The position numbers and the translations under genes were made by a program. From contig OZ024741.1 in the NCBI GenBank assembly GCA_964016885.1, positions 343,046,001 to 343,110,000 on the forward strand: a stretch of 64,000 bases of DNA. Direction: 5' to 3'. The DNA comes from Eledone cirrhosa. Taxonomy: Eukaryota. A model generated the notes under the pieces. The model saw only the letters and a list, made by a program, of their open reading frames with translations, was not told the origin of the DNA and did no database searches. Below are positions 88 through 64,000 of the stretch, piece by piece (within the stretch, counting starts at the first letter, position 1; each line of letters begins with the position of its first letter).

Positions 88-150
88 ATTTTGTCTGATG
101 AAGGCATACCATAATTTAATTTGGTATCCCTGAAATATGTATAATGAAAT
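88..150 (+). ncRNA. Type I hammerhead ribozyme motif (minimal, Penelope-type)
   Basis: CTGATGA 95-101; stem II agg-c-atacca/tggtat-c-cct; GAAA 132-135; short stem III t-atgt-a; AUA triplet 141-143; stem I attttgt/atgaaat with two G-U pairs; AATAAA follows, then a tail into (TA)n at 283. Confidence 0.6.
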
Positions 151-5732: not shown

Positions 5733-6007
5733 TACATATCAAAAGTAGCGCTAATATTATGCACATTTCTATGTATATATCATAAGACTACTAAAGTGAT
5801 AGGGTATATAAAAACCACAGTTGGATATTTCCTTTTAACTTTTGCAGATGATGTACATATCTTCTGCTGAGAACACCCAATAGTTTCGAAAATCGATTTA
5901 AGATATTCATCATTTCGTCAATTCAAAATGTTGCATGCCTACGCGTCAATATACCAAATGGGCATGTATATATACACCTTTTGCAGTCTCGATAAATTCT
6001 GTATTTG

Positions 6008-10084: not shown

Positions 10085-10623
10085 AGAAGTGTGCTTAACC
10101 AAACAGAGAGAGAGAGAGGAAAGAACAGTCTTTCCTCTCTCTCTGTCTGGTTGAGCACACTTTGAGTGGTTTGGGGGCTGCCCTTTCTAGCACCTCGTCC
10201 CCCAGACACCACCGGTTCACTGCCCTAAACACGCTGTGACATCTCTCTGCCGCGTGTAGCTGGACGGTCCCTTTAGATTCTCTTAGAGTTGTCTGAAATG
10301 TATAGTCTTGCACGCGCTGATGAGTCATAGGCGATTCCATTTCAGTCAACAACTTCCTGGCGAAACAGATGTCTTTGGATTTGTACGCGTGTATTATATA
10401 GTTATAGAGGTGCGTATATACATTTTAATATTTATTTTTAATTATTGTGTGTCTACCCTGCCTTCCATAGATTATAGACTCCATACACTGGTGGTTTTCC
10501 CTGTCTTATTGATGGCGCACTATCTCTCTCTAGTGTGTTACCCTTTCAACAGATTGTATTTTAAAGAGCTCAGGATTCCTTTTCCTTTGAGCACATTATT
10601 GACAGGGAATAACGAGAGTCTGA

Positions 10624-16360: not shown

Positions 16361-17063
16361 AAATTTCAAACTTCGTTCGCTGTTTCAAAAAAAAATTTAC
16401 TTAAGAATAGTGAAAATAAAAATAAGAATAAAGAATATATGTAAAAAATGGACACTGTAACACTAACGTACAATTACGTCATGAGAAAGACTCGTATGAA
16501 TAGTCCATAATTCTATAAATAGTATAAGTTATCTAACATCCTCACGAATATATTACGAAAACAAACAACTTGAGATTAGTTGTAAACAAAACGCCAAAAT
16601 ACCAACACCAATCTAGCATTAAAAACAACAATAACAAAAAAAAAAAAAAAAAAATGAAAATGGCTGATATAATCTAAGCACAATTAATTAGGAGATATAA
16701 ACAAAATGCCGTGACTAATCTAAACGGTTTAACCCCCAAGGATAAATGTTTTAGTGAGATACAATCAAGATAATATATATATAAGTATGTACACGTACAT
16801 ACATATATGTATACCGACGTACAGTAGTATGTATATATATATATACATACATGCACACATATATATATGCACGTATGAATTCACCGAACATTTATTATAA
16901 TGCTCGGTGTGTTTGTAAACAAACATCCCGTATTAAGCCGTTTCATTTTTTCCGTTTATCAATATATATATATATATATATATATATTCCTTTCCATATA
17001 CTGTACGATTGTGTTGTTATTTCTGTTTACCTTTTTCACACACACACACACACATATATATAT

Positions 17064-17815
17064 AATTGAATAAACAAGAGAGATGAACACTAATATAAAC
17101 ATACATGTGTTCGAATCGTAAGGACCAAGTTTGATAGGGTGAAAAAATACTAACTACAGCAATACGGTTTGTCAGACTTAATTTTAAGTATTAAATTAAG
17201 AAAAATAACAGACCTATATCGGGCAATCGCCTGGTAACAACTAGACAGTGTTGGAGACTGCTTCGCAACATCTTATTAAGTGAAGTCCACACTTTTCTCT
17301 GCTCCTCTGTAGTTGTTGAGAAATTAGTGATCCTTCCACTTCTAAAAATATTAGAGGAATGAATTGTGTACGATAAGAATTATCGCATGTGTCTTCGAAA
17401 CCCAGCTTGTCTCGAAATTCCATGCCGCTAAAAATAGCAGCCTGGTTGACAGGACATTAAAATTAGCTCTACATGATGGAGCCGACAAATATATAGTGAG
17501 TTAGAAACTCAGAGTAGTCTCTTATAATTAAATAGCTCTAAGAAAAAAGCTTTTCCGAGCCATGTAATATAATTGAATAAACAAGAGAGATGAACATAAA
17601 TATAAACATACATGTGTTCGAATCGTAAGGACCAAGTTTGCTAGGGTGAAAAAATACTAACTACAGCAATATGGTTTGTCAGACTTAATTTTAAGTATTA
17701 CATTAAGAAAAATAACAGACCTATATCGGTTAATCGCCTGGTAACAACTAGACAGTTTTGGAGACTGTTACGCAACATCTTATTAAGTGAAATCCACACT
17801 TTTCTCTGCTCCTCA
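17064..17815 (-). mobile_element. Partial tandem (about 1.5 x 507 bp) non-coding element with one hammerhead per unit
   Basis: Direct repeat starts at 17064 and 17571; hammerhead motifs at 17236-17317 and 17743-17815 on minus strand; flanked by (TA)n. Confidence 0.75.
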
Positions 17816-17940: not shown

Positions 17941-18759
17941 TTATAAGAAAATTAGGTTTTTTTTACACAAAGAAACGAGCTATCTTACACGAGGGAAAGT
18001 ATAAGGAAAATAAATCGAAAATACAGCTGGAGTCTTTTTAAGAATATTTATTTGTTTCCTTTACCGGTTCCACAGTTCTAATGCTTTTCAAAAGTAGAAT
18101 TGAGATGGAGGGTTTGTGGTTTGTCTCGCATCTGGTTGGTGTTCGAAAATTATTTCTGTTTCATGTGGAAAGAGTGGCTCGAATTGCTGGTTTTTGTTAA
18201 AAAAATAATTTGCTTGGTTGATGACTGTCACGTGAATATGTACAATGAATTTCGCGCCAGTTCGCGTTCAAAGTTTTATTGTATTTGTCTTTAAAAATTT
18301 CGCTCAAACTGTTGTTTTTTATTAGTGTAATTTGGTTGGTTGATGACTGTCACGTGAATAAGTACATCAAACTTCGCGCCAGTTCGTGTTTGAGGGTTTT
18401 TTATTGCCATTTTCAAAGTTACATGATTGGCCATATAATATAGATGGTTTGTGATAGAGATAATGGTTAAGAAGTGGAGGGGGGGGGGGGACAAATCGTT
18501 CTGGTTCAGTGGGTATGGCTAATGTGGTGAGGTGTCAAAATTCAGACTTTCTATTGAAATAAATGACAGTCACCAATCCAGCAATTCAAGCCACTCTTTC
18601 CATAAAACAGAAATAACTTTCGAACACCAACCAGATGCGAGAAAAACCACAAACCCACCATCTCAAATCTACTTTTGAAAAGCATAAGAACTGTGAAACC
18701 GATAAAGGAAACAAATAAATATTCTTAAAAAGATTCCAGTTGCATTTTCGATTTATTTT

Positions 18760-18766
<7 letters not shown>
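17940..18766. mobile_element. Fold-back element with about 190-bp arms
   Basis: Arms 18000-18190 / 18578-18766; consensus of arms GAAAC-CG-GTA then AATAAA; internal 65-bp direct repeat near 18215 and 18336. Confidence 0.6.
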
Positions 18767-18800
<34 letters not shown>

Positions 18801-18903
18801 TGTATATATAGTATATTTGGCAATATACTGTATGCTTAATTAAAAACATTTTGAAGACCTTACGCTATTGTTTTAAAGTAGTGACTATGTAGCTTACTTC
18901 TTT

Positions 18904-18996
18904 TTTTCAACAAACAAAGGGAGATAAGCTGACAGATCTCTGTTTCATACTGTTGGTATTCATCAGAGCTTAGCACTCGCCTTTGTCTGTTGAAAA
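18904..18996 (-). ncRNA. Type I hammerhead ribozyme, canonical and compact, with extended stem I
   Basis: Minus strand: taagct-CTGATGA-atac(caaca)gtat-GAAA-cag(agat)ctg-TC-agctta; stem I continues about 20 bp past an internal loop. Confidence 0.9.
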
Positions 18997-19082
18997 TTAT
19001 AAATGTTGGATTCTTATAGAATTCCAGTAATAATCAGGAACTGATTATACAGAGCGATAAATACAGACATATACATATATGT

Positions 19083-19830
19083 GAGATAAACACATACATA
19101 TACATATATGTGTTCAAATCGTAAGGGACCAGATTCGCTAAGGTGAAAAAGATACTAACTATGGACAATAGGGTTTGCCAGACTCAATTTAAGAATAAAT
19201 CAAGAAAATAAATACAAACCGGAATTGTGGTAGCTACCAATCACCAGACAGCGTTTGGCTATGCTGTTTAACAATCCAATTGTGAAGAGAATTACCAATT
19301 CTTATTGTTCATCAGTGGGTGAAAAATTAGTAAACTCCTCACTTCTAAGTACATCAGAAAACTGAATTGTGTGCGTATATACAATAATGCACGTGGTATC
19401 AGAGCTAGCGTGTCTCACAAACTCATACCACTAAAAATAGCAGCCAAGTTTACTTGACATTTAAATTAGCTCAACAAATCAACGGAGCCGAATATATCAA
19501 AGGTATATATTGAGTTAGAAACTCAAAATAATCTCTTACAATAAAATAGCTCTAAGAAAGAGATTTTTCCGAGCCGTATATTATAATTGAATATAAAAGA
19601 GAGATAAACACAGACATGTACATATATGTGTTCAAATCGTAAGGGACCAGATTCGCTAAGGTGAAAAAGATACTAACTATGGACAATAGGGTTTGCCAGA
19701 CTCAATTTAAGAATAAATCATACCACTAAAAAATCTGGTCCCTTACGATTTGAATACATATGTATATGCCGGTGTTTATCTCTCTTTTATATTCAATTAT
19801 AATATACGGCTCGGAAAAATCTCTTTCCGT
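19083..19830 (-). mobile_element. Relative of the 17064 element: 518-bp unit, partial tandem plus inverted copy
   Basis: Repeat starts 19083 and 19601; inverted segment about 19732-19828; hammerhead motif 19241-19322 (-). Confidence 0.75.
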
Positions 19831-19843
19831 GAGCTATTTCCGT

Positions 19844-20232
19844 GAGCTTGCGAGAATGAAAAGAATATACATGCCTGTATATTCTTTTCATTCTCGCAAG
19901 CTCCGATGAACTGACTGGTTATAACTTTGTATTGGCGATCGAGTAACGTGAAAATAAGCGGATAGCGATCTCTAGACCTATCAGTTCAGAGAAACAATTG
20001 TCAGCAATGAGATTAAAACCCTTTTTTGCATAGCAAACCGTGTCACTTATCTTTCCTGATTTATTATTACTCCAAGTGTTTACAACATAGGAATTACAGC
20101 GTACTCGCAGCATCACTATGGAAACGCCTTGTTGAGTCAAACTTAGCCAAGCGTTGATATCATCCACTACCCGGAGTACCATAACTGGACTACACCTAAG
20201 TGGACTACCTATAACAATAATTTGTTACCCCG
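19844..20232 (+). mobile_element. Fold-back element with variant hammerhead (CCGATGA core)
   Basis: Perfect 28-bp hairpin about 19844-19903; gct-CCGATGA(19903-09)...GAAAC-AATT-GTC-agc(19991-20005). Confidence 0.55.
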
Positions 20233-21768: not shown

Positions 21769-22186
21769 TATATATATATATATATTCTGAGTTCAAATAC
21801 ATTCTGAGTTTAAATCCTGCCGAAGTCGATTTTGCCCGTCATCCTTCTGGGGTCGATAAAATAATGGACAAATAAAGTATTAGTATCGGTAAACTGACTT
21901 TCCTGGCTTATGTCTAAATTAGAAATACTTAGAGTAGAATGAAATATTTTATTATAGTTAAAAATCTACAATCATGTCTCAGATGATCAAAAACGTTATA
22001 TATAAGCAGTTGAATACTCATAAAACGATTTGAAAGATGTACATCAATGCCGTTGGTTGTTGGGAATAAAGGAAAAAGATCGGCGGATGACTGTTGTTAG
22101 GCGTTATGAATATTCATAGATCAACGTAGATGTGATTATAATTAAATGAACATATTATCATTATTTATATTGAAAATTAAAGTGTA

Positions 22187-23111
<925 letters not shown>

Positions 23112-34552: not shown

Positions 34553-34722
34553 ATTCTGCCAATTTGCAACTATTAAGCAAGGCTTAAATTAGTCGGAAAT
34601 AATCAAAATTACATTATAAATTGATAATATACAAAATGGCATGAGAAAATGCATAGGGAGTTAAGAAAAAAACACACTTTTGTGTAAAATGTGAGATTCT
34701 GGAACACCCTATAACACACCCA

Positions 34723-35698
34723 TACGTGTAATGTATACGGATACCAAATCAACTGTCCTGACCCCAGATAGGGAAACACCACCTTTCTCAACCCTCGCTG
34801 GAATTTTACAGGGCGATACCCTTGCTCCGTATCTATTTATCATTGTTATGGATTATGTTTTGCGCATGTCTGTGGATAGGATTCAGGATAGGGGATACCA
34901 ACTACAGCCTAGGAGAAGCTCACGCTACCCAGCAAAATACTTGACCGACACCGACTTTGCTGACGACATCGCATTGATCACTCGGTCACTGGAAAATGCT
35001 GAGAGTCTTTTGAAGTCATTAGAGCAAGCGTCCAACTGTGTTGGACTGTACCTCAACGAATCCAAGACTGAGTGTTTGAACAGATGCGCAAACAGCCCAA
35101 ACTACCCCATCAGAACCCTTAATGGTACCACCCTTAAGCAGGTGGAAGATTACAAGTATCTTGGCTCATATATCTCCTCCTCCAAAAAGATTTTCTAACC
35201 AGGAAGGGTATGGCATGGTCAGCGTGCAATGACATGCACGCCATATGGACATCTCAACTTACCAACAAGCTAAAACTGGAAATATTCCAAGCAACCATTA
35301 AGCCCATATTACTTTATGGATCCGAAACTTGGACACTAACATCACAACTTGAGAGGAGATTGGATGGCACATATACCCGCCTCTTAATGAGAGTGCAAAA
35401 CCTATCCTGGAAACGACATCCCACCTAAAATCTATGGCAAACTCCCTCAAGCCTCTGCCCTTCTAAAATCCCGGAGAGCTCAATTTGCTGGCCACTGTCA
35501 CCGTGCCAGCAATGAAATAATATCCGCTCTCTTGACTCCAGCCTGACTAGGAGTAGGAAGCTGTCATTCCCTGACGTTATCTCTAGGGATACGGGAATCA
35601 GCAGACAGGACCTGGGGGAAGCGATGGGGGACAGGGGATTCTGGGGCATGAGAGTGAGATCCATCATCTCGACAGTAGTCGACGAGTGATGATGATGA
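34723..35698 (+). mobile_element. 5'-truncated RTE-clade LINE (RT C-terminal half)
   Basis: GILQGDTLAPYLF, DFADDIAL, YKYLGS, LLYGSETWTL; (GAT)n tail; 11-bp TSD taacacaccca at 34712 / 35699. Confidence 0.92.
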
Positions 35699-37500: not shown

Positions 37501-37539
37501 CAACAAGGACAACCGCAACAAAGACATCAACTAAAATGA

Positions 37540-39106
37540 CACCAACAGCAACGAAAAGAACAACAACAACACAACATCAAAGAAAACAACAACAACAACA
37601 ACGAAGACAACAACAACCACAAAAACAGCATTGACAACAACAACGACAACATCAACAACCACAAATATGGCATTGACAACAAAAACGACAACAACAAGAA
37701 CAACAACCACAAAAACAGCATTGACAACAACAAAGACAACAACAACAACAACAACAACCACAAAAACAGCATTGACGACAACAACACACAACAAACACAA
37801 AAACAGCATTGACAACAACAACGACAACGACAACAACAACAACCAATAAAAACAGATTTAACAACAACAACGACAACAACAACAACCACAAAAACAGCAT
37901 TGACAACAACAACAAAAACAGCATTGACAACAACGACAACAACAACAACCACAAAAATTGAATTGACAACAACAACGACAACAACAACAACAACAACCAC
38001 CACAAAAACAGCATTGACAACAACAACTACAACAACAACCACAAAACAGCATTGACAACAACAATGACAACAACAACAACAACCACAAACACAGCATTGA
38101 CAACAACAATGACAACAACAACAGCAACCACAACCACAAAAACAGCATTGACAACAACAACAACAACAACCACAAAACAGCATTGACAACACAACAACAG
38201 CAACAACAACAACCACAAAAGCAGCATTGACAACAACAAAGACAACAACCACAAAAACAGCATTGACAACAACAACAACAACAGCAACCACAAAAACAGC
38301 ATTGACAACAACAATGACAACAACAACAACAACAACAACCACAAAAACAGCATTGAAAACCAAAATGACAAGAACAGCAACCACAAAAACAGCATTGACA
38401 ACAACAACTACAACAACAACAACAACCACAAAAACAGCATTGACATCAACTACAACAACAGCAACAAAAACAGCATTGACAACAACTACAACAACAACCA
38501 CATAAACAGCATTGACAACAACAATGACAACAACAACAACAACCACAAAAACAGCATTGACAACAACAACTACAACAACAACAACAACAAAAACAGCTTT
38601 GACAACCACAACAATAACAACAACAACCACAAAAGCAGCATTGACAACAACAATGACAACAACTACAACAACCACAAAAACAGCATTGACAGCAACAACA
38701 ACAACAACAACCACAAAACAACACTGACAACAACAATGACAACAACTACAACACCACAAAAACAGCATTGACAACAACAATGACGACAACAACAGCAACC
38801 ACAAAAGCAGCATTGACAACAACAACCACAAAAACAGCATTGACAACAACAATGACAACAACAAAAGCAACCACAAAACGGCATTGACAACAACAATGAC
38901 AACAACAACAATAACCACAAAAACAGCATTGACAACAACAACAACAACCACAAAAACAGCATTGACAACAACAACAACAACAACAACCACAAACAACAGC
39001 ATTGACAACAACAATGACAACAACTACAACAACCACAAAAACAGCATTGACAACGACAACGACAACAACAACAACAACCACAAAAACAGCATTGACAACA
39101 ACAACT

Positions 39107-39137
<31 letters not shown>

Positions 39138-42100
39138 AAACAGCATTGACAACCACAACAATAACAACAACAACCACAAAAACAGCATTGACAACAACAA
39201 TGACAACAACTACAACAACCACAAACACAGCATTGACAACAACAACAACAACAACCACAAAACAGCATTGACAACAACAATGACAACAACTACAACACCA
39301 CAAAAACAGCATTGACAACAACAATGACGACAACAACAGCAACCACAAAAGCAGCATTGACAACAACAACCACAAAACAGCATTAACAACAACAATGACA
39401 ACAACAACAATAACCACAAAAACAGCATTAACAACAACAACAACAACCACAAAAACAGGATTGACAACAACAACAACAACAACCACAAACAACAGCATTG
39501 ACAACAACCACAAAAACAGCATTGACAACAACAATGACTACAACTACAACAACCACAAAAACAGCATTGACAACAACAACGACAACAACAACAACAACCA
39601 CAAAAACAGCATTGACAACAACAATGACAACAACTACAACAACCAGAAAAACAGCATTGACAACAACAACGACAACAACAACCACAAAAACAGCATTGAC
39701 AACAACAACAACAACAACAACAACAACCACAAAAACAGCATTGACAACAACAATGACAACAACAACAGCAACCACAAAACAGCATTGACAAAAACAACTA
39801 CTACAACAACAACCACAAAAACAGCATTGACAACAACAATGACAACAACAACAACCACAAAAACAGCATTGACAACAACAACAACAACAACAACCACAAA
39901 CAACAGCATTGACAACAACAATGACAACAACTACAACAACCACAAAAACAGCATTGACAACGACAACGACAACGACAACAACAACAACCACAAAAACAGC
40001 ATTGACAACAACAACTACAACAACAACAACAACAAAAACAGCATTGACAACCACAACAATAACAACAACAACCACAAAAACAGCATTGACAACAACAATG
40101 ACAACAACTACAACAACCACAAACACAGCATTGACAACAACAACAACAACAACCTCAAAACAGCATTGACAACAACAATGACAACAACAACCACAAAACA
40201 GCATTAACAACAACAATGACAACAACAACAATAACCACAAAAATAGCATTGACAACAACAACAACAACCACAAAAACAGGATTGACAACAACAACAACAA
40301 CAACAACCACAAACAACAGCATTGACAACAACCACAAAAACAGCATTGACAACAACAATGACTACAACTACAACAACCACAAAAACAGCATTGACAACAA
40401 CAACGACAACAACAACAACAACCACAAAAACAGCATTGACAACAACAATGACAACAACTACAACAACCAGAAAAACAGCATTGACAACAACAACGACAAC
40501 AACAACCACAAAAACAGCATTGACAACAACAACAACAACAACAACAACCACAAAAACAGCATTGACAACAACAATGACAACAACAACAGCAACCACAAAA
40601 CAGCATTGACAAAAACAACTACAACAACAACAACCACAAGAACAGCATTGACAACAACAATGACAACAACAACAACAACCACAAAAACAGCATTGACAAC
40701 AACAACTACAACAACAACAACAACCACAGAAACAGCATTGACAACAACAACTACAACAACAACCACAAAAACAGCATTGACAAAACCAATGACAACAACA
40801 ACAGCAACCACAAAACAGCATTGACAACAACAACTACAACAACAATAACCACAAAAACAGCATTGACAACAACAATGAAAACAACAACAACAACCACAAA
40901 AACAGCATTGACAACAACAACTACAACAACAACAACAACCACAAAAACAGCATTGACAACAACAATGACAACAACAACAGCAACCACAAAAAACAGCATT
41001 GACAACAACACCTACAACAACAACAACCACAAAAACAGCATTGACAACAACAATGACAACAACAACAGCAACCACAAAAACAGCATTGACAACAACAACA
41101 ACAACAACAATAACCACAAAAACAGCATTGACAACAACAACTACAACAACAACAACAACAACCACAAAAACAGCATTGACAACAACAACAACAACAACAA
41201 CCACAAAACAGCATTGACAACAAGAACAACAACAACCACAAAACAGCATTGACAACAACAACAACAACCACAAAAACAGCATTGACAACAACAACTACAA
41301 CAACAACAACAACAATCACAAAAACAACATTGACAACAACAATGACAGCAACAACATCAACCACAAAAACAGCATTGACAACAACAACTACAACAACAAC
41401 AGCAACCACAAAAACATCATTGACAACAACAACTACAACAACAACAGCAACCACAAAAACAGCATTGACAACAACAACAACAATAATAACCACAAAAACA
41501 GCATTGACAATAACAACAACAACAACCACAAAAACAGCATTGACAACAACAATGACGACAACAACAGCAACCACAAAAACAGCATCGACAACAACAATGA
41601 CAACAACAACAGCAACCACAAAAACAGCATTGACAACAACAACAACAACAACATCAACCACAAAAACAGCATTGACAACAACAATGACAAGAACAACAGC
41701 AACCATAAAAACAGCATTGACAACAACAATGACAAGAACAACAGCAACCACAAAAACAGCATTGACAACAACAACAACAATAATGACAACAACATCAACC
41801 ACAAAAACAGCATTGACAACAACAATGACAAGAACAACAGCAACCACAAAAACAGCATTGACAACAACAACTACAACAACAACAGCAACCACAAAAACAT
41901 CATTGACAACAACAACTACAACAACAACAGCAACCACAAAAACAGTATTGACAACAACAACAACAACAATAACCACAAAAACAGCATTGACAACAACAAC
42001 AACAACCACAAAAACAGCATTGACAACAACAATGACAACAACAACAGCAACCACAAAAACAGCATTGACAACAACAATGACAACGACAACAGCAACCACA

Positions 42101-43385
42101 AAAACAACATTGAGAACAACAGCAACAACAACAATGACAACAACAACATCTACCACAAAAACAGCATTGACAACAACAATGACAAGAACAACAGCAACCA
42201 CAAAAACAGCATTGACAACAACAATAACAACAACAACAGCAACCACAAAAACAGCATTGACAACAACAACTACAACAACAACAACCACAAAAACAGCATT
42301 GACAACAAAAATGACAACCACAAAAAACACCATTGACAACAACAACAACAACAATAACCACAAAAACAACATTGACAACAACAACTACAACAACAACAAC
42401 AACCACAAAAACAGCATTGACAACAACAACGACAACAACAACAACCACAAAAACAGCATTGACAACAACAACTACAACAACAACAACAACAACAACATTG
42501 ACAACAACTACAACAACAACAAAAACAGCATTGATAACAACAACTACAACAACAACAACCACAAAACAGCATTGACAACAACAACTACAACAACAACAAC
42601 CACAAAACAGCCTTGACAACAACAACAACGACAACAACAACAACCACAAAAACAGCATTGACAACAACAACTACAACAACCACAAAAACAGCATTGACAA
42701 CAATAACTACAACAACAACAACCACAAAACAGCATTGACACAACAACTACAACAACAACAACAACCACAAAAACAGCATTGACAACAACAACGACAACAA
42801 CAACAACCACAAACACAGCATTGACAACAACAACTACAACAACAACCACAAAAACAGCATTGACAACAACTACAACAACAACAACCACAAAAACAGCATT
42901 GACAACAACAATTACAACAACAACAACCACAAAAAAAGCATTGACAACAACAACTACAACAACAACAACCACAAAACAGCATTGACAACAACAACGACAA
43001 CAACAACAACCACAAAAACAGCATTGACAACAACAATGACAACCATAAAAACACCATTGACAACAACAACAACAACAATAACCACAAAAACAGCATTGAC
43101 AACAACAACTACAACAACAACAACCACAAAAACAGCATTGACAACAACAACGACAACAACAACAACCACAAAAACAGCATTGACAACAACAACTACAACA
43201 ACAACAACCACAAAAATAGCATTGACAACAACAATGACAACCACAAAAACACCATTGACAACAACAACAACAACAACAACCACAAAAACAGCATTGACAA
43301 CAACAACTACAACAACAACAATCACAAAACAGCATTGACAACAACAACTACAACAACAACAAAACAGCATTGACAACAACAACGA
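37540..43385. repeat. 5.8-kb CAA-based minisatellite
   Basis: Anchor accacaaaaacagcattgac plus variable (caa)n, more than 100 units. Confidence 0.95.
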
Positions 43386-43445
43386 TTACTAATGGAAGTA
43401 ATGGAAGTTAACGTTGAGTAGTGTAGTTCTAAATATCAAAATGGG

Positions 43446-46400
43446 TGCCACCGCTGCCGCCGCCGCCGTCACCACCGTCGCCGCCACCACCACCACTACC
43501 ATTACTACCAACACACCAACCATTACCGCCACCATCACCACCGCCACCACAACCACCACCATCACCACCACCATCAACAACACCAGCACCACCATTACTA
43601 TCAACACATCAATCATTACCACCACCATTACCAGCACCAGCACCATCGCCGCCACCGCCACCACCACCACCACCACCACCACCACCACCACCACCACCAC
43701 TACATTACCACCACCAATCCCACCACCACCACCACCACCATCACCACCACCACCACCACCACCACCACCGCCACCGCCACCACCACCACCACCACCACCA
43801 CCACCACCACCACCACCATCACCACCACCACCACCACCATCACCACCACCACCACCATCACCACCACCACCACCACCACCACTACCACCACCACCACCAC
43901 CACCACCACCACCACCACTACCACCACCACCACCACCACCGCCACCGCCACCACCACCACCACCACCACCACCATCACCACCACCACCACCACCATCACC
44001 ACCACCACCACCATCACCACCACCGCCACCACCACCACTACCACCACCACCACCACCACCACCACCACCACCACCACCACCATCACCACCACCACCACCA
44101 CCATCACCACCACCACCACCGCCACCGCCACCACCACCACCACCACCACCACCATCACCACCACCACCACCACCATCACCACCACCACCACCATCACCAC
44201 CACCACCACCACCACCACTACCACCACCACCACCACCATCACCACCACCATCACCACCACCACCACCACCACCACAACCATCACCACCACCACCACCACC
44301 ACCACTACCACCACCACCACCACCACCACCACCACCACCACCACCACCACTACCACCACCACCACCACCGCCACCACCACCACCACCACCACCACCGCCA
44401 CCGCCACCACCACCACCACCACCACCACCACCACCACCACCATCACCACCACCACCACCACCATCACCACCACCACCACCACCATCACCACCACCACCAC
44501 CACCACCACCACCATCACCACCACCACCACCACCACCACCACCACCACCACTACCACCACCACCACCACCACCACCACCACCACCACCACCACCACTACC
44601 ACCACCAGCACCACCTCCACCACCACCACCAACACCACCGCCACCACCACCACCACCACCACCACCACCACCACCACCACCACCACCACCACCACCACCA
44701 CTATCACCACTACCACCACCAGCACCACCAGCACCACCACCAGCACCACCACTATAACCAGAACCACCATTACCAGCACCAACACCACCAACCACCGCCA
44801 CCATTACCACCACCATTACCAGCACCACCACCATCAGTACTCCCCCTCCCCCACCACCACCATTACCACCACCATTAGCAGCACCACCACTACCAGTACC
44901 ACCACCGGCACCAGCACCACCACCACCGCCACCATTACCACCACCATTACCAGCACCACCACCACCGCCACCATTACCTCCACCATTACCAGCACCACCA
45001 CCATCCGTACCACCACCACCACCAGCATTACCAGCACCACCACCACCAGTACCACCACCCGCACCACCACCACCACCACCACCACCACCACCAGTACCAC
45101 CACCCGCACCACCACCACCACCACAAACACCACCACCAGTACCACCACCAGCACCACCACCACCGCCACCATTACCTCCACCATTACCAGCACCACCACC
45201 ATCCGTACCACCACCACCACCAGCATTACCAGCACCACCACCACCAGTACCACCACCCGCACCACCACCACCACCACCAGTACCACCACCCGCACCACCA
45301 CCACCACCACAACCACCACCACCAGTACCACCACCATTACCAGCACCACCACCACCGCCACCATTACCTCCACCATTACCAGCACCACCACCATCCGTAC
45401 CACCACCACCACCAGCATTACCAGCACCACCACCACCAGTACCACCACCCGCACCACCACCACCACCACCACCACCACCACCAGTACCACCACCCGCACC
45501 ACCACCACCACCACAAACACCACCACCAGTACCACCACCGGCACCAGCACCACCACCACCGCCACCATTACCTCCACCATTACCAGCACCACCACCATCC
45601 GTACCACCACCACCACCAGCATTACCAGCACCACCACCACCAGTACCACCACCCGCACCACCACCACCACCACCAGTACCACCACCCGCACCACCACCAC
45701 CACCACAACCACCACCACCAGTACCACCACCATTACCAGCACCACCACCACCGCCACCATTACCTCCACCATTACCAGCACCACCACCATCCGTACCACC
45801 ACCACCACCAGCATTACCAGCACCACCACCACCAGTACCACCACCCGCACCACCACCACCACCACCACCACCACCACCAGTACCACCACCCGCACCACCA
45901 CCACCACCACAACCACCACCACCAGTACCACCACCGGCACCAGCACCACCACCACCGCCACTATTACCACCAGCATTACCAGCACCACCACCACCACCAT
46001 CACCACCATTACCACCATACCACCACCATTAGCAGCACCACCACCACCAGTACCACCACCACCACCACCACCATACCACCACCATCACCACTACCACCAC
46101 CAGCACCACCAGAACCACCACCACTACCACCACCACCATTACCAGCACCACAACAACCACCACCACCACCACTATAACCAGCACCACCTCCACCAGCACC
46201 ACCACCATTACCAGCACCAACACCACCAGTACCACGACGAGCACCACCACCACCGCCACCGGCACTATTACCACCAGCATTACCACCAGTACCACCAGCA
46301 CCACCACCAGCACCCCCCCCCCCCCACCATCACCACCACCATCACCACCAGCACCACCAGTACCCCACCCCTCCCACCAATACCACCACCACCACCACCA

Positions 46401-46450
46401 CCAGTACCCCACCCCATCCCACCAGTACCACCACCACCACCACCACCACC
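43446..46450. repeat. 3-kb (CCA)n tract with higher-order repeats
   Basis: Nearly pure CCA 43650-44700; about 390-bp period in 44900-45960. Confidence 0.95.
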
Positions 46451-47639
46451 ATAGTGGTCCAGTTGCAGTCAAATCAGCTTTTCAACTGCAAATGTTTTCA
46501 AAACGGATTTCTGCAATATATCTTTTCCTTTCTTCTTAAATGATTTGAGGGAATTTGGCTACTATTGTTAGAGGCTCCTTAGTAGGCGCACTTTACAGTT
46601 TCGTTTATTTTGTTACTCCTATCGTCATTTTCTTGTTCGTCTTCTAAGAACCGCCCCCAAATTAATTACTGATATCAATATATCTTCTATTATGGTATTT
46701 TAAGCAGTTTTATCTTGATCGTCTCACCTCTTTACCTAGTTATCTATCTCTGAACGTACTTACTGTAAAAGTATTCGAAGCGGATTATTAAATTTCAAGT
46801 GTCCACAATATCTGCTTATAACTGTTCTTCGTCTGATGAATTTAACATTAAATGATTTCTCCGTATAATTGTTTGAAGATTGCTTTCATCTATACATTTT
46901 TTTATGGTGACATGTTCATATAAGATATTTTCCTTAATTGGTTTCTTACAGGGAACGCCAAAACTCCATAGAAAATCACTTCCATGGAACGAGAAAAATG
47001 TCAATTGTAGCATTGACATGAAACTGCTATAATCTGATTGGTTAATTTATAATTTGTTTTAAACTTTCAGAATATGCAAGGGATGTTCATTTAGTAGTAT
47101 GAATCTTTTTATTTTCTATTTTTTTCTTATTAATGCGGTGCACTATTAGAGTATTTATGAATGAATGATAGGCTGAGCGAATGTCTTGAGTTGTCAGTAA
47201 TAAAGAGCGTTGCAGATAGGTGACTTTGATATGACGACAGCCTTTTCCAATATGTCTGTCACCTAGTCTGTCACCTAAATAAACAGTGGTTCATGATGTA
47301 GACAGTTTTCTAAGTACACAGCTTATAAGAAGGCCGGATTTTTGCATTTTTTAAGGCAGAGTGAGTTTTCTCTTGAAGCTACACAATATATACAGTGTGC
47401 TCACTTTTTACGCGAAGATGCGTTCGTGAACGAGATTTAGATAACTCCGCAAAAAATATCAAATGTGAGTCAAATATCCAGAGTTACTTCTGTATGATTG
47501 ATGATAAATCATTAATAGTAATCATAAAATTATTTAGAGATTGAACATACGAAGCGCTGAGGAGTTATGAAGTTCATAGAAAATGTAAAATGTAAACCCC
47601 AGATGCAAAACTAACTGTATCCAATAGGTCGCTATAAAT

Positions 47640-48899: not shown

Positions 48900-50400
48900 T
48901 ACTTACACATATAAGTTGACACAGATAATATATTAACCAAGAATATAGGGACGTACAATACATGTATAATTAGAAAACTATTATAAAAGATCTATTGTAG
49001 AACTATAAACGATATTTAGGTAGAAACATCAATAGATTCAGCAGTGCCTAACTCCATCAGGCGTTGCAGACTACTACCAACAAGTAGAGAGGAGCAGTAG
49101 ATGTTACAATCCAACCGTGTCCAAATCACCCGCCTCAGCTGTAGCCACCACCAGAAGGAGGGTCTACATGAATAGACTACACAAAGGATAGGGCCAAACA
49201 TATCAAAACAGCCAAATTGCACTTCATACCATACAGCGCCGAATGTCGCAGTCTCAATATATTTAGTTCTCAGCCAGACAGAAACGAGCAGAGGGAGTTA
49301 TGGAACCGGTTTCAACGTGCTAAATAGTTAAATTCAAAACCATTAAGGAGAATGATATGAAGGGGATTTTCGCATTATACAGGAGAAAATCATGGAATAG
49401 AATAGAGAGGACTAAGAAAAAGATAGGGAAGGTCAACTCGCGGTTTGACAGCCCAAAATACCAGTCATATTCGTCGATGCTACACCTAGAGGCGAACTAA
49501 CGTATCGTTTTAGAAGAGATTTATAGAAACGGAATCTTAGGGTTTTAAAGTAGTAGAAAAACCGGGAGCTACCATAAAATCTCGGATCAGTAGGACATAT
49601 CCCTTTAGGAAACCCTCCTGTACTGATAGAAACTGTATAGTCTGTAAGATAAGCCCACAGATAAACTGTAAAACTAGAAATGTAGTTTATAGGATAAGAT
49701 GTACAAAAGGATGATTCAGAAACAAGACGATGACACACATAGGAGAGACAGCCCGTATTGTAGGAGAGAGATAAAAGAAAACTGGAGAGAACTTAAGGAG
49801 GAGAAAAGCTCATCAGTGCTATACCAACATGCCAAACTAGAACAGGAAGGCTCAATAGATAACATAGAAATAAAGATCCTATCCACTCATAGAACTGATG
49901 CAACACTCAGACAAAGTCTAGAGGCCACACACATAATAGAAGATAGTCCTAGGCTAAATAGAAAAGACGAGTGGAATATTAACAGCCCGCAACCTAATGA
50001 CTGAAAACATCAGAGGAAAGAAAGTGACACAGACAGCAAAACAACAGCAAACAATACAACCCCCATACACATAAAACACACGTAAACACGATAAACACAA
50101 AAACACATAAACACATACACAGAGAGGCGCAGGCGCAAACGTTTGCGAAGACACTGTACGCAAAAAACGCACCACAAAAAAACCCAACTAAATACAAATA
50201 TAAGATGGAATAGAAGTTTAAGACCAGGAAAAAGAGGAGGCACAAAAACAGATAACATTGAGGCGGCCACAGAATATGTGACGAAAGAACTTTGACAAAC
50301 AGATAAATAACAAACAATAAAGATAAAGTGAAAATGATATGGTGCGTGTTTCTTTCTATTGGAAATATGGGCAACATGATCTTCCCCAAATATAACTCTC
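48900..50400 (+). mobile_element. Decayed Penelope-like retroelement (linker plus GIY-YIG endonuclease)
   Basis: VIFVDATPRGEL; PFRKPSCTDRNCIVC; CKTRNVVYRIRC...HIGETAR; SVLYQHAK...RQSLEA...LNRKDEW; ends at (TA)/(CA)n; boundaries approximate. Confidence 0.8.
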
Positions 50401-59495: not shown

Positions 59496-61199
59496 TTGTA
59501 ATTATCTGAATAGAAAAATGCTTCCCACATAAAATCTTAAATTCTAGCTGATTTTAACAAAAGAGATCTTTCTTAAGCCTATCCGACTTTCATCTACATC
59601 CTTCAAATGAAACTATATAATTAAAATCCACTAAACCTAAAATTAATAGCCTTCATTTTAGATGTCCACCTATTCGATTAGCAAGATCGTGATTTGAGCT
59701 TCGCCTTCATTTCTATAACTTTGAAGAAGGCTGCTGCAAGTATTAAAGACATAACTAACAATAAAACAAATATAATTTAAGATACACAGAGTCTTAATAT
59801 CCCAATATTAAGTTCTTTAACATACTACTACACTCTGCTCATAAATGTTTTCATTAAAAAGTATAGTATGCACATTATAACACATACATCGATACATAAA
59901 CACAATGATCTCTTTGTTTTATGTCTTTTTAGACGATGATCTTCAAGACATTGTCTGTTTGTCTCTCTTGTTATATTTCAATTCACCTTCTCTCTTTTTC
60001 TCTCAGTTTTTCTCTAAAACACACCCTATGAATTCTTTCTGGAAACGAAACAGTCAACAGTTCAGAATTTGGTTGGGTTTTATCTTCACTCAGGTTTTAG
60101 GAAAAACATATTATTTTGGTATGGTAGAAAGTAGGGAAGGTACATTGTTCGAAATTTACTCGATAACCTTAGTAAAGTACACATTGCAGTTGTGATATTT
60201 ATAGAACTTCTCTATTTCTGTTAGGTGGCGAATTAGAAGAGTCATTAGAACGTCGGAGAGAATGATTTGCGGCATTCGTTTCGGCTCACTGCTCTCTGGG
60301 TTCAAATCGCGCCGAAGTCAACTTTATCTTTCATCCATTCGAGGTCGATAGAAAAGTACCTGTCTAGTAGTGGGGTCGATTTTTCCTCTATAACTCTCTC
60401 TTACCTCCATTCTCTCAGACTCTCTCTATCATTCTCTGGAAGAAAATGCTGTTTTCAATCCTGGAGTGGAGATCAGCTCCGCCAGGTTAAAGAAAAAAAG
60501 AAATGCCCCAGAAACGCCGTATGTCAACACGGCGTCCCTACGAAACGAACCGTTTGTATATGAATACAAAAATGAACTCGACTTGCTTACCGGGGAAAAC
60601 AATATTCTGTCCCTCATGGACATGATTTTTATTTCTATGTTCTCTAGTATGCTACCATGTTCCATTTTGGCAGGTTGGTAGAGTAATGATGAGTTCTTCC
60701 AAAACAAAGTATATATATATATATAAAGTCTGTCTTAAGGCTGAAGCTCATTTGGCCGGTGCTTATCCCGGTCTCATGGCGTGAAGCGACTGAGAGTACA
60801 AGACACCCCACTCTGGACAGGACGCCGATCCATCGCAGGGTTGAACGCCCAGCTATTGCTGGAACACTTTTTCAGCTGAGTATACTGGAGCACGTGAAAT
60901 GAAGTATTTTGCTCAAGAACACAACACGCAACCCAGGAATCGAACCTATGACATAATGATCGTAAGTCCAACACCATTACCACTAGGCCACGTGCCTCCA
61001 CATACACATATATACATATATACATCGGTATATTTGTGTGAGCTTCTATGCATATATATATTGGACTGTTTGCATACGAAATCTAAAGTAAAACGACAAA
61101 TAAACACCATTACGGATCTATCTATCTATCTTCGGAGACGATAGACGTCTTTTTGTTTTGCTCCTGCATTTTGTTGGATATTTGTTACGAGAAGCTGTA

Positions 61200-64000
61200 G
61201 GTTTGTTAAGTAACTTGTTATTTGTTTTGTTTAACCCCTCGCCTGGGTCTGCAGACGTTGGGTAAAATAAATTTGTCTATGAAAAGTCGTTTAGTGATAA
61301 TGGATTCCATTAATACATCGCATACGACATATGCCACATCTCCCCGCCCCAAGGAAAGTGATAGAGAGAAGGTAGCAGCACAACGCTCTAAGCCTTCCCT
61401 CCTCACTCCCGCAAAAGACACCATGAACACGGAATTAAAAGAAAAATTTGTGGAAATGGGTGCAAACCCCAAAAGTTACAATTACGCAAACAAGAACAAC
61501 AATGACAATAACAACACAACCAACAACAGCAATAATGACAACACTAACAAAGGAAAAAATGAAGTCAACACGAATAACAACAACAACAATGATAACAACA
61601 ATAAGACCAAAGAAAACGGACCCACAACTGGAGTCTCCTTCGCACAGGCGTTTCGAGAAACATAAACATACAAGGCACTGAATATCTCAAATGCCAAGGA
61701 ATTGCTAAAAGAAGCAAGAAATTGTGTAACTTTCGGGGAAGGTGGGGAATTTACAATTACCTCCCCACAAGAAATTAGAGGAGACACAGTCCTGAGAACC
61801 ATAACCTTCAGGACAATTTACAACACAACTAGGAAACTGGCTCAATTATCCAAAAGCGAAATTGAGCTGGTCCTAAATAGTGCATGGAAAGATATCGCTT
61901 TCATACAGAAAGGGAAACTGTATGGAAGCATATCTGTTTTAATGAAAGATCAATTGGCGGCACGGAAATATTCTGTGTCGCCAATTGTATCCAAATCATA
62001 CACCTTTTTCCCCACATATTTGGGGGAAAAGAACACAAAAGATAAGAATCTCGGGCATCAGGCCAAATGCGAGCATTTGGTGGGTGCTAACAGGATTCTT
62101 AGAAGATGAGGACACAATCCTTTCGATAGTCGAGTCCACCGGGGGCGTATTCGGCGGCAATAGCCTTGAAGTTCTGGTCCAAATGAGACCAGAACGGATA
62201 GCAAGAATACCGCAGCGTGTGTCCGTGGACGGAGTCGCCTTCATAAACATTTATGTTGAGGGCAGGCGGCCTTCATGCTACCACTATTCAAGAAGTGGTC
62301 ACCTGAGGACTTCCTGTCCTCGTTTAAATGCCCCCCCCACCCTTAAAAAAGACGCTTCTGCCCACCCCACACACAACAACACAACCACCACCACCACCAC
62401 CACCACCACCACCACCACCACCACCACCACAAACACAACAACACAAGACACTGTACCACCCAACCCCTCCCCACCTAAAGCAAATACAAAAGCACCCTCA
62501 ACCACAACAAAACCTCAAAATATACCCCTCCCCAACAACACGGACGAGGACCCCTTATCAACTTCACCCAGTGACGACGAGGGAGAACCCTTTCAACCAG
62601 TAAAAAGAAAGAAAAGAAGGCACCATATTAACCACCAGCACAAACAGAACAAACATCAGAAACAAAAACCACCCCTCCCGAAAACATAACACATACTACA
62701 AAACGCAAACACACAGAAGAACAACAAACAAAAACAAACACAGCACAACAAAAACAGTATACATACATCAACAGAAACAACAAAATACTTGTACAATCAA
62801 TAGACAAAGACCCTTCGGTGGAAACCGAAGGGAAAACGTTCACCAACGCGGCGAATAAACCGCATTTAAAAATGATTAGGGTCCCAAGGGACACCTACGC
62901 AATGCTCAAACAAAACTTTCCCGAGGACGTGGGGAACCCCTGTAATAGACCTACCAACCGCGTCTTTTTGAAATGTTTCCCCACCACCACCCCAGACACC
63001 CCTTCCCCACCAAACACCCGCACCCCACCACACACTGATTCCTCACCACATCCCAAACCACCACCCCACCAAACAACCCCTCCAACAAACACCCCCATGG
63101 AAATTGTGCAGACTGGTCCCCAGGAGAAGGAGAGGTAGGTGTCTTTTCCTTTTCTCCACTTTAACTCTTCACCACCAACATGGCTGTTATAAGAGTTGTA
63201 TGTTTAAATGTGCGCGGCCTGGGGATGTCCTGGAAGCAGGGCAAACTCTTAAATGACCTCAGGTCGCACAGAATGGATGTATTAGCTATTTGCGAGTCCA
63301 GGATCAGAAGCGAGCACCAACTGGCCCCCATCTTCGACGACTTTGACATCTATGCATCTCTCTGTCAGCCGGGGGGTGGAGGTGGGGTTGTCGTTCTGCT
63401 TCGAAAACACCTGGGCTTCGCAACACGGAAGGTACACCTGGACCCGGAGGGTCGATTGGTGGTTCTAGACGTCGGCAGTAGTGAAAGTGGAGCCTTCAGG
63501 CTGGTGGGAACGTATGCCCCATCTGGGACACCGCGACCGGACTTCTTCCAACGTCTAGAGACTTTTCTGGGAACGCCCCGCTCCTTGCTTTTAGTGGAGG
63601 ACTGGAATGGTATCCTGGATGCACATTGGCACTATGTAGGGGCATGTCCCGATAGAGGGGAGTGTAACAGCCTCAAACGGTTAATCGGCCGATTTGACCT
63701 GGCCGATAGATATCGACTAGATTTTCCGACTGTGCCACTGTGGACGTGAACTAATCGTAAAGGAACATCTAGGTCGTACCTAGATAGGATCCTAGTTAAA
63801 ATTAAGGATAGGGACATATTAAACTGTCCACGAATGTTTATGGTTGACTATTCAGATCACAAGTTACTGATCTGCGTAGTCAACCTTGATAGAACCCATA
63901 GACAGAGACCCGGTTACTGGAAGCTAAATTTGTCCTTACCGACAAACAAAGCTTACAGTAAACGGATTAGCACTTTAGTTAAGCAGGGGTTGACGGGGGC
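61200..64000 (+). mobile_element. 5' part of a Tx1/L1-clade LINE, running off the window end
   Basis: Frameshifted ORF1 with degenerate zinc knuckle CYHYSRSGHLRTSCP; ORF2 APE endonuclease follows. Confidence 0.85.
63180..64000 (+). pseudogene. LINE ORF2 APE endonuclease domain with in-frame stop
   Basis: LNVRGL, DVLAICES, GGVVVLL, EDWN, TGA at 63747, then in frame SYLDRILV, YSDH, PGYWKLNLSL. Confidence 0.88.

Follow-up and report, generated by a model that had tools for sequence, protein, structure and literature searches.

Positions 18904 to 18996 of the window, the 64,000-nucleotide stretch of Eledone cirrhosa contig OZ024741.1 analyzed here, contain a type I hammerhead of canonical form, read from 18996 to 18904 on the minus strand, as judged from sequence and folding. 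The motif is predicted to self-cut after a GUC triplet at 18931, and in our judgment its host sequence is probably a solo repeat copy, truncated on the 5′ side, from a non-coding family of many copies; that family is likely a non-LTR retrozyme whose insertion into (TA)n would have relied on Penelope-type enzymes. Because hammerheads and retrozymes of this kind are already known, the motif is an ordinary one and, being part of a mobile repeat family, not peculiar to this locus.

Anatomy of the hammerhead

The minus strand carries the segments CUGANGA, GAAA and UH arranged around three helices, with helix I open. The core from C3 to A9 reads CUGAUGA (18960-18966, with N7 at 18962) and the GAAA segment comprises G12, A13, A14 and A15.1 (18943-18946). 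Stem II (18947-18959) folds as 4 bp (18959-18956 with 18947-18950), holds three A-U pairs, with A10.1-U11.1 at its base, and is closed by the loop CAACA, whose final A is expected from its position in the sequence to dock on stem I. Stem III (18932-18943) consists of A15.1-U16.1 plus 3 bp closed by the loop AGAU and is nearly palindromic; it is able to pair between two molecules too (two-strand fold at −12.2 kcal/mol, hairpin at −1.8 kcal/mol). The GUC triplet occupies 18933-18931, placing the predicted cut, by hammerhead numbering, at 18931/18930. Stem I (18925-18972) contains 6 Watson-Crick pairs (18967-18972 with 18930-18925) and leads into an internal loop, UGC (18975-18973) opposite U (18924), and 3 bp, which together (18921-18978) form a tertiary motif of the Schistosoma type (PMC2632901). 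A long extension of stem I follows, with 17 bp (18980-18996 with 18920-18904) including one G.U pair, a bulged C at 18979 and pair probabilities of about 1.0, giving 20 pairs in total beyond the internal loop (3 + 17); pairing stops at 18996/18904. The sequence-only reading had described an intact core with a GUC triplet, a 6-bp stem I, an internal loop and about 20 further base pairs, all of which are borne out by the minus-strand sequence; the type I layout that it took to permit contact between loop II and stem I likewise holds at the level of sequence.

The Schistosoma contact nucleotides given in PMC2632901 are the 5′ U of loop 1, the last C of the internal loop and the C...A of loop 2, and all have counterparts here (18924, 18951, 18973, 18955). 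A helix I of 6 bp, a helix II of 4 bp and the contact nucleotides are thus all present in the sequence, and helices of these lengths with loop contacts correspond to the layout described as ‘canonical’ for animals (PMC4209133). A close comparison is with Schistosoma mansoni Sm-alpha as described in PMC2632901 and PMC6155905: both have a 6-bp stem I and an internal loop of G-U-purine-C opposite U-C, and in both loop II begins with C and ends with A. Unlike Sm-alpha, the present motif has a loop II of five bases rather than six, a single U in place of a longer 3′ bulge, A-U at 10.1-11.1 and a long continuous arm. Pair 10.1-11.1 being A-U, the G10.1-C11.1 pair is absent from 18904-18996, a departure that the sequence-only reading passed over, as it did the non-catalytic minimum-energy fold described below. 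G10.1-C11.1 is reported as highly conserved, not invariant (PMC4209133), and natural exceptions are described, even U.U (PMC3088659); our literature search found no measured rate for A10.1-U11.1.

The repeat copy and its relatives

The hammerhead lies in a minus-strand repeat copy of at least 240 bases, which in contig alignments starts abruptly at 19058 and ends at a (TA)n tract (18817-19058). The comparison covered four of 15 listed sequencing runs, from four studies with four organism labels; contigs with at least 80% likeness to 18822-19060 number 3,238 in X1, which may be the source sample, 30 in X4, 12 in X5 and 1 in X6, the last matching the flank only. The canonical type I hammerhead therefore resides in a many-copy repeat. 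Other copies continue past 19058 with different sequence, and the motif with which they run on is absent from the window at up to 3 mismatches, from which we conclude that the present copy has lost its 5′ part. The (TA)n tract at the 3′ end (18763-18816, repeat annotation; (TA)5+ begins 133 nt from the cut site) is likely the insertion target: (TA)5+ occurs within 239 nt downstream of all five hammerheads measured, against a background of 41% within 260 nt. Insertion at a microsatellite and 5′ truncation are thus both seen at 18763-19058, and this combination fits a Penelope-type insertion, such truncation and (TA)n ends being typical of Penelope-like elements according to PMC8557442. The locus has no tandem units and the window no second copy; one family contig goes back head-to-tail, with unread letters between. 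No protein-coding frame is present in the 240 bases of the copy.

Behind the ribozyme lies a small bulged hairpin (18877-18898, minus strand; contigs, with pairing read by hand), which is damaged here at 18891-18892 and intact in most other copies, the pairing letters at these two positions being carried by 101 and 103 contigs of X1 and by all covering contigs of X4 and X5. The damage private to this copy comprises the bulge at 18979 and the two changes at 18891-92. A second small hairpin, at 18812-18829, also lies between the ribozyme and the (TA)n end. Contig depth is lower over the ribozyme than over the flanks, and depth cannot rank the parts. Scans of metagenome contigs with the ribozyme pattern and with the flank pattern, and a pattern scan of viral contigs, each returned 0 matches.

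Variation among the relatives spares the catalytic core. Among the 40 of 42 substitution rows listed, 24 fall inside 18904-18996 and none falls on the 12 fixed core positions, where about 3 would be expected under an even spread (hand arithmetic). At N7, 41 contigs of X1 and every covering contig of X4 and X5 have another letter, and stem II varies at 18959, 18958, 18948 and 18947, with C11.1 in 21 contigs, U10.1 in 35 and G10.1 in loose contig ends at its base. These loose ends, from X1, X4 and X5, represent relatives with a U3 core (A8 and G10.1 are readable in X1 and X4), whose arms differ in sequence and are by eye still complementary; U3-A8 is described as a compensated natural swap in PMC4209133 and PMC3088659. 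In the internal loop, G>A at 18974 gives UAC in 8 contigs of X1 and 1 of X4. Stem III becomes a perfect palindrome, as compared by hand, when 18937 is changed (in 20 X1 contigs and 1 X5 contig) or when 2 bases are lost at 18940 (1 contig of X4), and in its perfectly palindromic form it allows pairing between two ribozymes. In X1, six joints (7 contigs) skip 82 to 157 bases across all or most of the ribozyme, with unread letters between, and one contig replaces the ribozyme core, which indicates that some copies lack or replace the ribozyme. An RNA-editing footprint was considered and rejected because the changes show no strand bias (plus-strand T>C:A>G places at 5:6 in X1, 7:5 in X4 and 2:4 in X5).

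One X4 contig bears 15 changes in paired columns, among which five pairs are changed on both sides and all five remain able to pair, with a single such pair in each of stems II and I and three in the long arm (18984/18916, 18985/18915 and 18990/18910, minus strand; contig alignment); 1 pair becomes U.G, and 4 are disrupted by a one-sided change, two of these lying within the 6-bp stem I. A count of at least five doubly hit pairs had a permutation P of 0.0025, the permutation taking in the paired columns of this contig and leaving aside its 2-base loss and its changes outside the motif. The changes were grouped by shared depth value and stand for one lineage, which may be a chimera. The partner changes of this contig occur in X1 too, unphased (for 18990/18910, in 36 and 44 contigs). 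Because relatives change both sides of five pairs, three of them in the long arm, we regard the hairpin as a family trait and not a local inversion; judged from these sequences, paired changes have maintained the long hairpin, and the selection behind this would have acted on the parent RNAs. The sequence-only reading had allowed that the hairpin could be an inversion by-product without counterpart in other copies; the arm recurs with compensatory changes, and the claim of a hairpin stands.

Predicted folding and activity

The catalytic fold makes up about 2% of the predicted ensemble at 37 °C (0.017-0.022) and 0.4% at 15 °C, in a model with crude constraints and without energies for tertiary contacts or Mg2+. 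The minimum-energy fold is not catalytic and beats the catalytic fold by 1.1 kcal/mol; both this gap and the low share arise because stem II and stem III each offer the core an alternative pairing partner. For four other candidates in the window the catalytic share was at most 0.0002 under similarly crude constraints, and two further hammerheads in the window have broken cores. The sequence-only reading had singled out 18904-18996 as the best candidate for activity. Its rank is upheld, as it comes top of the five modelled and is probably the best activity candidate in the window on modelling grounds; the support comes from modelling, and the A10.1-U11.1 pair together with the competing fold lowers the odds of activity. 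For comparison, 8 of 9 predicted retrozyme dimers from frogs are reported to have failed to cleave (bioRxiv 10.64898/2026.07.22.740005). Our estimate, a matter of judgment, leans modestly towards measurable cleavage of this copy in vitro.

In the model the long arm lifts the predicted catalytic share from 0.002 to 0.020 and takes the duplex that holds the cut ends from −6.7 to −31.6 kcal/mol. With a duplex of −31.6 kcal/mol on the cut ends, re-joining would be favoured over release. We put forward tentatively, as an unlikely reading, that the 20-bp arm is a selected clamp: by keeping the cut ends paired it would let the ribozyme itself join them again and so close the circle. A single repeat family would then range over C3-G8 and U3-A8 cores, over G-C, A-U and U.U as the lowest pair of stem II, and over a stem III that is either monomeric or dimeric. 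Were this true, the clamp family would be a natural variant library with which to test circle closure by the ribozyme against closure by a host ligase.

Origin of the copy and its setting

Membership among the animal non-LTR retrozymes is likely. As these are described in PMC7229834 (Cervera and de la Peña 2020) and bioRxiv 10.64898/2026.07.22.740005 (Li, Clavereau, Pollet), they resemble the present repeat in placing a canonical type I hammerhead, with its loop 1-loop 2 motif, in an apparently non-coding repeat that is low in GC and present in many copies, and they share with it solo monomers, variants at the foot of stem II (U.U in axolotl HHR_Amex2) and a proposed Penelope helper. Most such animal motifs are stated to lie in retrozymes (PMC7229834), and solo monomers are reported to be common (bioRxiv 10.64898/2026.07.22.740005). 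Unlike the described retrozymes, the present copy shows no tandem at its locus and has a stem III longer than the 1-2 bp usual in animals, together with a 20-bp extension of stem I that was not found described for them. A literature search that left most subscription papers outside its reach found no paper describing this repeat family, which the supplements of PMC7229834, PMC4209133 and PMC8557442 may include; the word ‘cephalopod’ is absent from the main text of PMC7229834.

On the retrozyme reading, and following the cycle set out in PMC7229834 and the bioRxiv preprint, parent copies would carry two ribozymes in a row and be transcribed as a tandem; loop II would dock on the UGC/U loop of stem I, each ribozyme would cut, and a unit-length RNA would be freed and closed to a circle. 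A Penelope reverse transcriptase would then copy the circular RNA into DNA nicked at (TA)n, leaving behind many solo and truncated copies. The long arm would likely clamp the two ends around the cut and exclude misfolds, and selection would have worked on these parent RNAs. Having a single ribozyme, the copy studied here cannot free a unit by itself, and with its private damage it could cleave a passing transcript once at the most; in all likelihood it is a dead end.

The main rival, which we hold to be unlikely though well short of negligible, is that the copy is the 3′ terminal repeat (pLTR) of a coding Penelope-like element, derived from a 5′-truncated insertion and without an independent small-RNA cycle. 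Much of what is seen here is shared with the hammerheads in such terminal repeats (PMC4209133, Cervera and de la Peña 2014; PMC8557442, Craig et al. 2021): type I topology, palindromic variants of stem III, U3-A8 variants, 5′ truncation and, as in some clades, insertion into (TA)n. The truncation and the (TA)n end are typical of Penelope-like elements in bioRxiv 10.64898/2026.07.22.740005 as well, which also describes retrozymes and pLTRs as related in frogs; a near-palindromic stem III is given as a Penelope trait in PMC4209133, and other copies do extend beyond 19058. Against this, animal Penelope hammerheads are characterized in PMC4209133 as mostly minimal, with a helix II of 7-8 bp, a helix I of 4-5 bp, an ill-defined loop 1 and no tertiary motif, whereas 18904-18996 is canonical, has the motif and shows none of the minimal features, namely a long helix II, an additional base following A9 and a weak loop 1. 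It also has no coding frame attached and no coding frame with a Pfam match nearby: a Pfam scan of 185 window frames (at least 60 aa, low-complexity frames left out) detected no Penelope domain, and no RT plus GIY-YIG frame is joined to the repeat at this locus, where the copy is cut off at 19058. The same 185 frames bear on a host-kept ribozyme working in an intron or untranslated region, like isolated vertebrate hammerheads, as they contain only transposon domains and weak matches and no recognized host gene. The intact core and contact motif and the best predicted fold in the window speak for such a role, and membership of a large family, the private damage next to the core (18979, 18891-92) and the lack of G10.1-C11.1 speak against it, so that we consider it highly improbable.

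Hardly more probable, and again well below the pLTR alternative, is that the motif is intact in a family that no longer cleaves, its pattern inherited from a long-dead ancestor and spread at the DNA level or by passive copying. The weak stem II, the competing fold, the copies that skip the ribozyme and the many predicted retrozymes reported as inactive (bioRxiv 10.64898/2026.07.22.740005) would agree with this, but the core is spared and the stems change in pairs among relatives, U3-A8 included. A chance match, or a hairpin produced by local DNA inversion, has a probability that we regard as close to nil. The plus strand does fold nearly as well (−32.5 versus −33.8 kcal/mol), which is common to any inverted repeat, and support from Rfam is absent: the whole window gave 0 matches at the gathering score, and 18000-20000 searched at E up to 10 gave 26 matches, none of them a hammerhead. 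An Rfam match is, for its part, not a defining biological feature of hammerheads. The hammerhead descriptor found 2 strict and 3 loose matches in the real window, as against none strict and 2 loose when the whole window was shuffled 200 times (block-wise, dinucleotide) and searched on both strands; the folding z was −6.0, and 0 of 200 shuffles were equally stable. With relatives whose arms differ in sequence yet pair, and pairing that ends at 18996/18904, covariation already refutes chance and inversion, with the caveat that it comes from one contig.

The significance of 18904-18996 alone is small, as animal genomes hold thousands of such motifs and the window at least seven; PMC7229834 counts 1,508 canonical hammerheads in a coral, about 5,000 such motifs in a mussel and 126,247 in axolotl. 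The motif points to no host function. Its compactness makes it convenient for assays of cleavage and ligation, and the paired variants of the family would allow the purpose of the long arm to be tested.

The window consists of microsatellite-rich, AT-rich DNA crowded with transposon debris. Abutting the cut-off start of the copy is a 518-bp partial tandem repeat of another family with an inverted arm (19056-19839, minus strand; repeat analysis), and a 507-bp partial tandem repeat lies at 17060-17814. Both carry an unrelated minus-strand type I hammerhead with a 38-nt stem II domain, in one case with C3 at 19315 and G12 lost, in the other with C3 at 17309 and two core changes; stems I and III of the two units differ in sequence yet pair. 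The 518-bp repeat meets the start of the copy (19056-19058) some 20 bases short of where it normally ends; the junction shows a 29-base duplication, lacks (TA)n and would reflect either a deletion or template switching from one ribozyme RNA to another. Other families contribute four further type I hammerheads or remnants, at 95-143 (+), 5864-5899 (+), 10317-10385 (+) and 12079-12026 (−), the one at 95 also having a long extended stem I and the one at 5864 having a UAC bulge motif, but C at position 6. By eye, 19900-20030 (+) holds the decayed remains of a hammerhead-like motif whose stem III is palindromic and whose stem II is long, next to a 60-base palindrome (19844-19903).

A MITE-like element occupies 18000-18766 and adjoins the (TA)n tract; its terminal inverted repeats measure 194 bp, are 92% alike and end in TA. 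At 22185-23106 lies a mariner-type transposon reduced by deletion, which has inverted ends of 105 bp and matches the Mos1 HTH. Two related short frames, at 49693-50001 (+) and 60432-60734 (−), resemble the end of a Penelope endonuclease by eye only; neither has a Pfam match, the former up to E 5. A reverse transcriptase fragment (PF00078) is found at 34695-35195 (+), and the start of a LINE-like element with a weak endonuclease match at 61210-64000 (+). About 9 kb of (ACA)n-derived 45-base repeats and (CCA)n repeats, with extreme strand skew, extend from 37539 to 46451.
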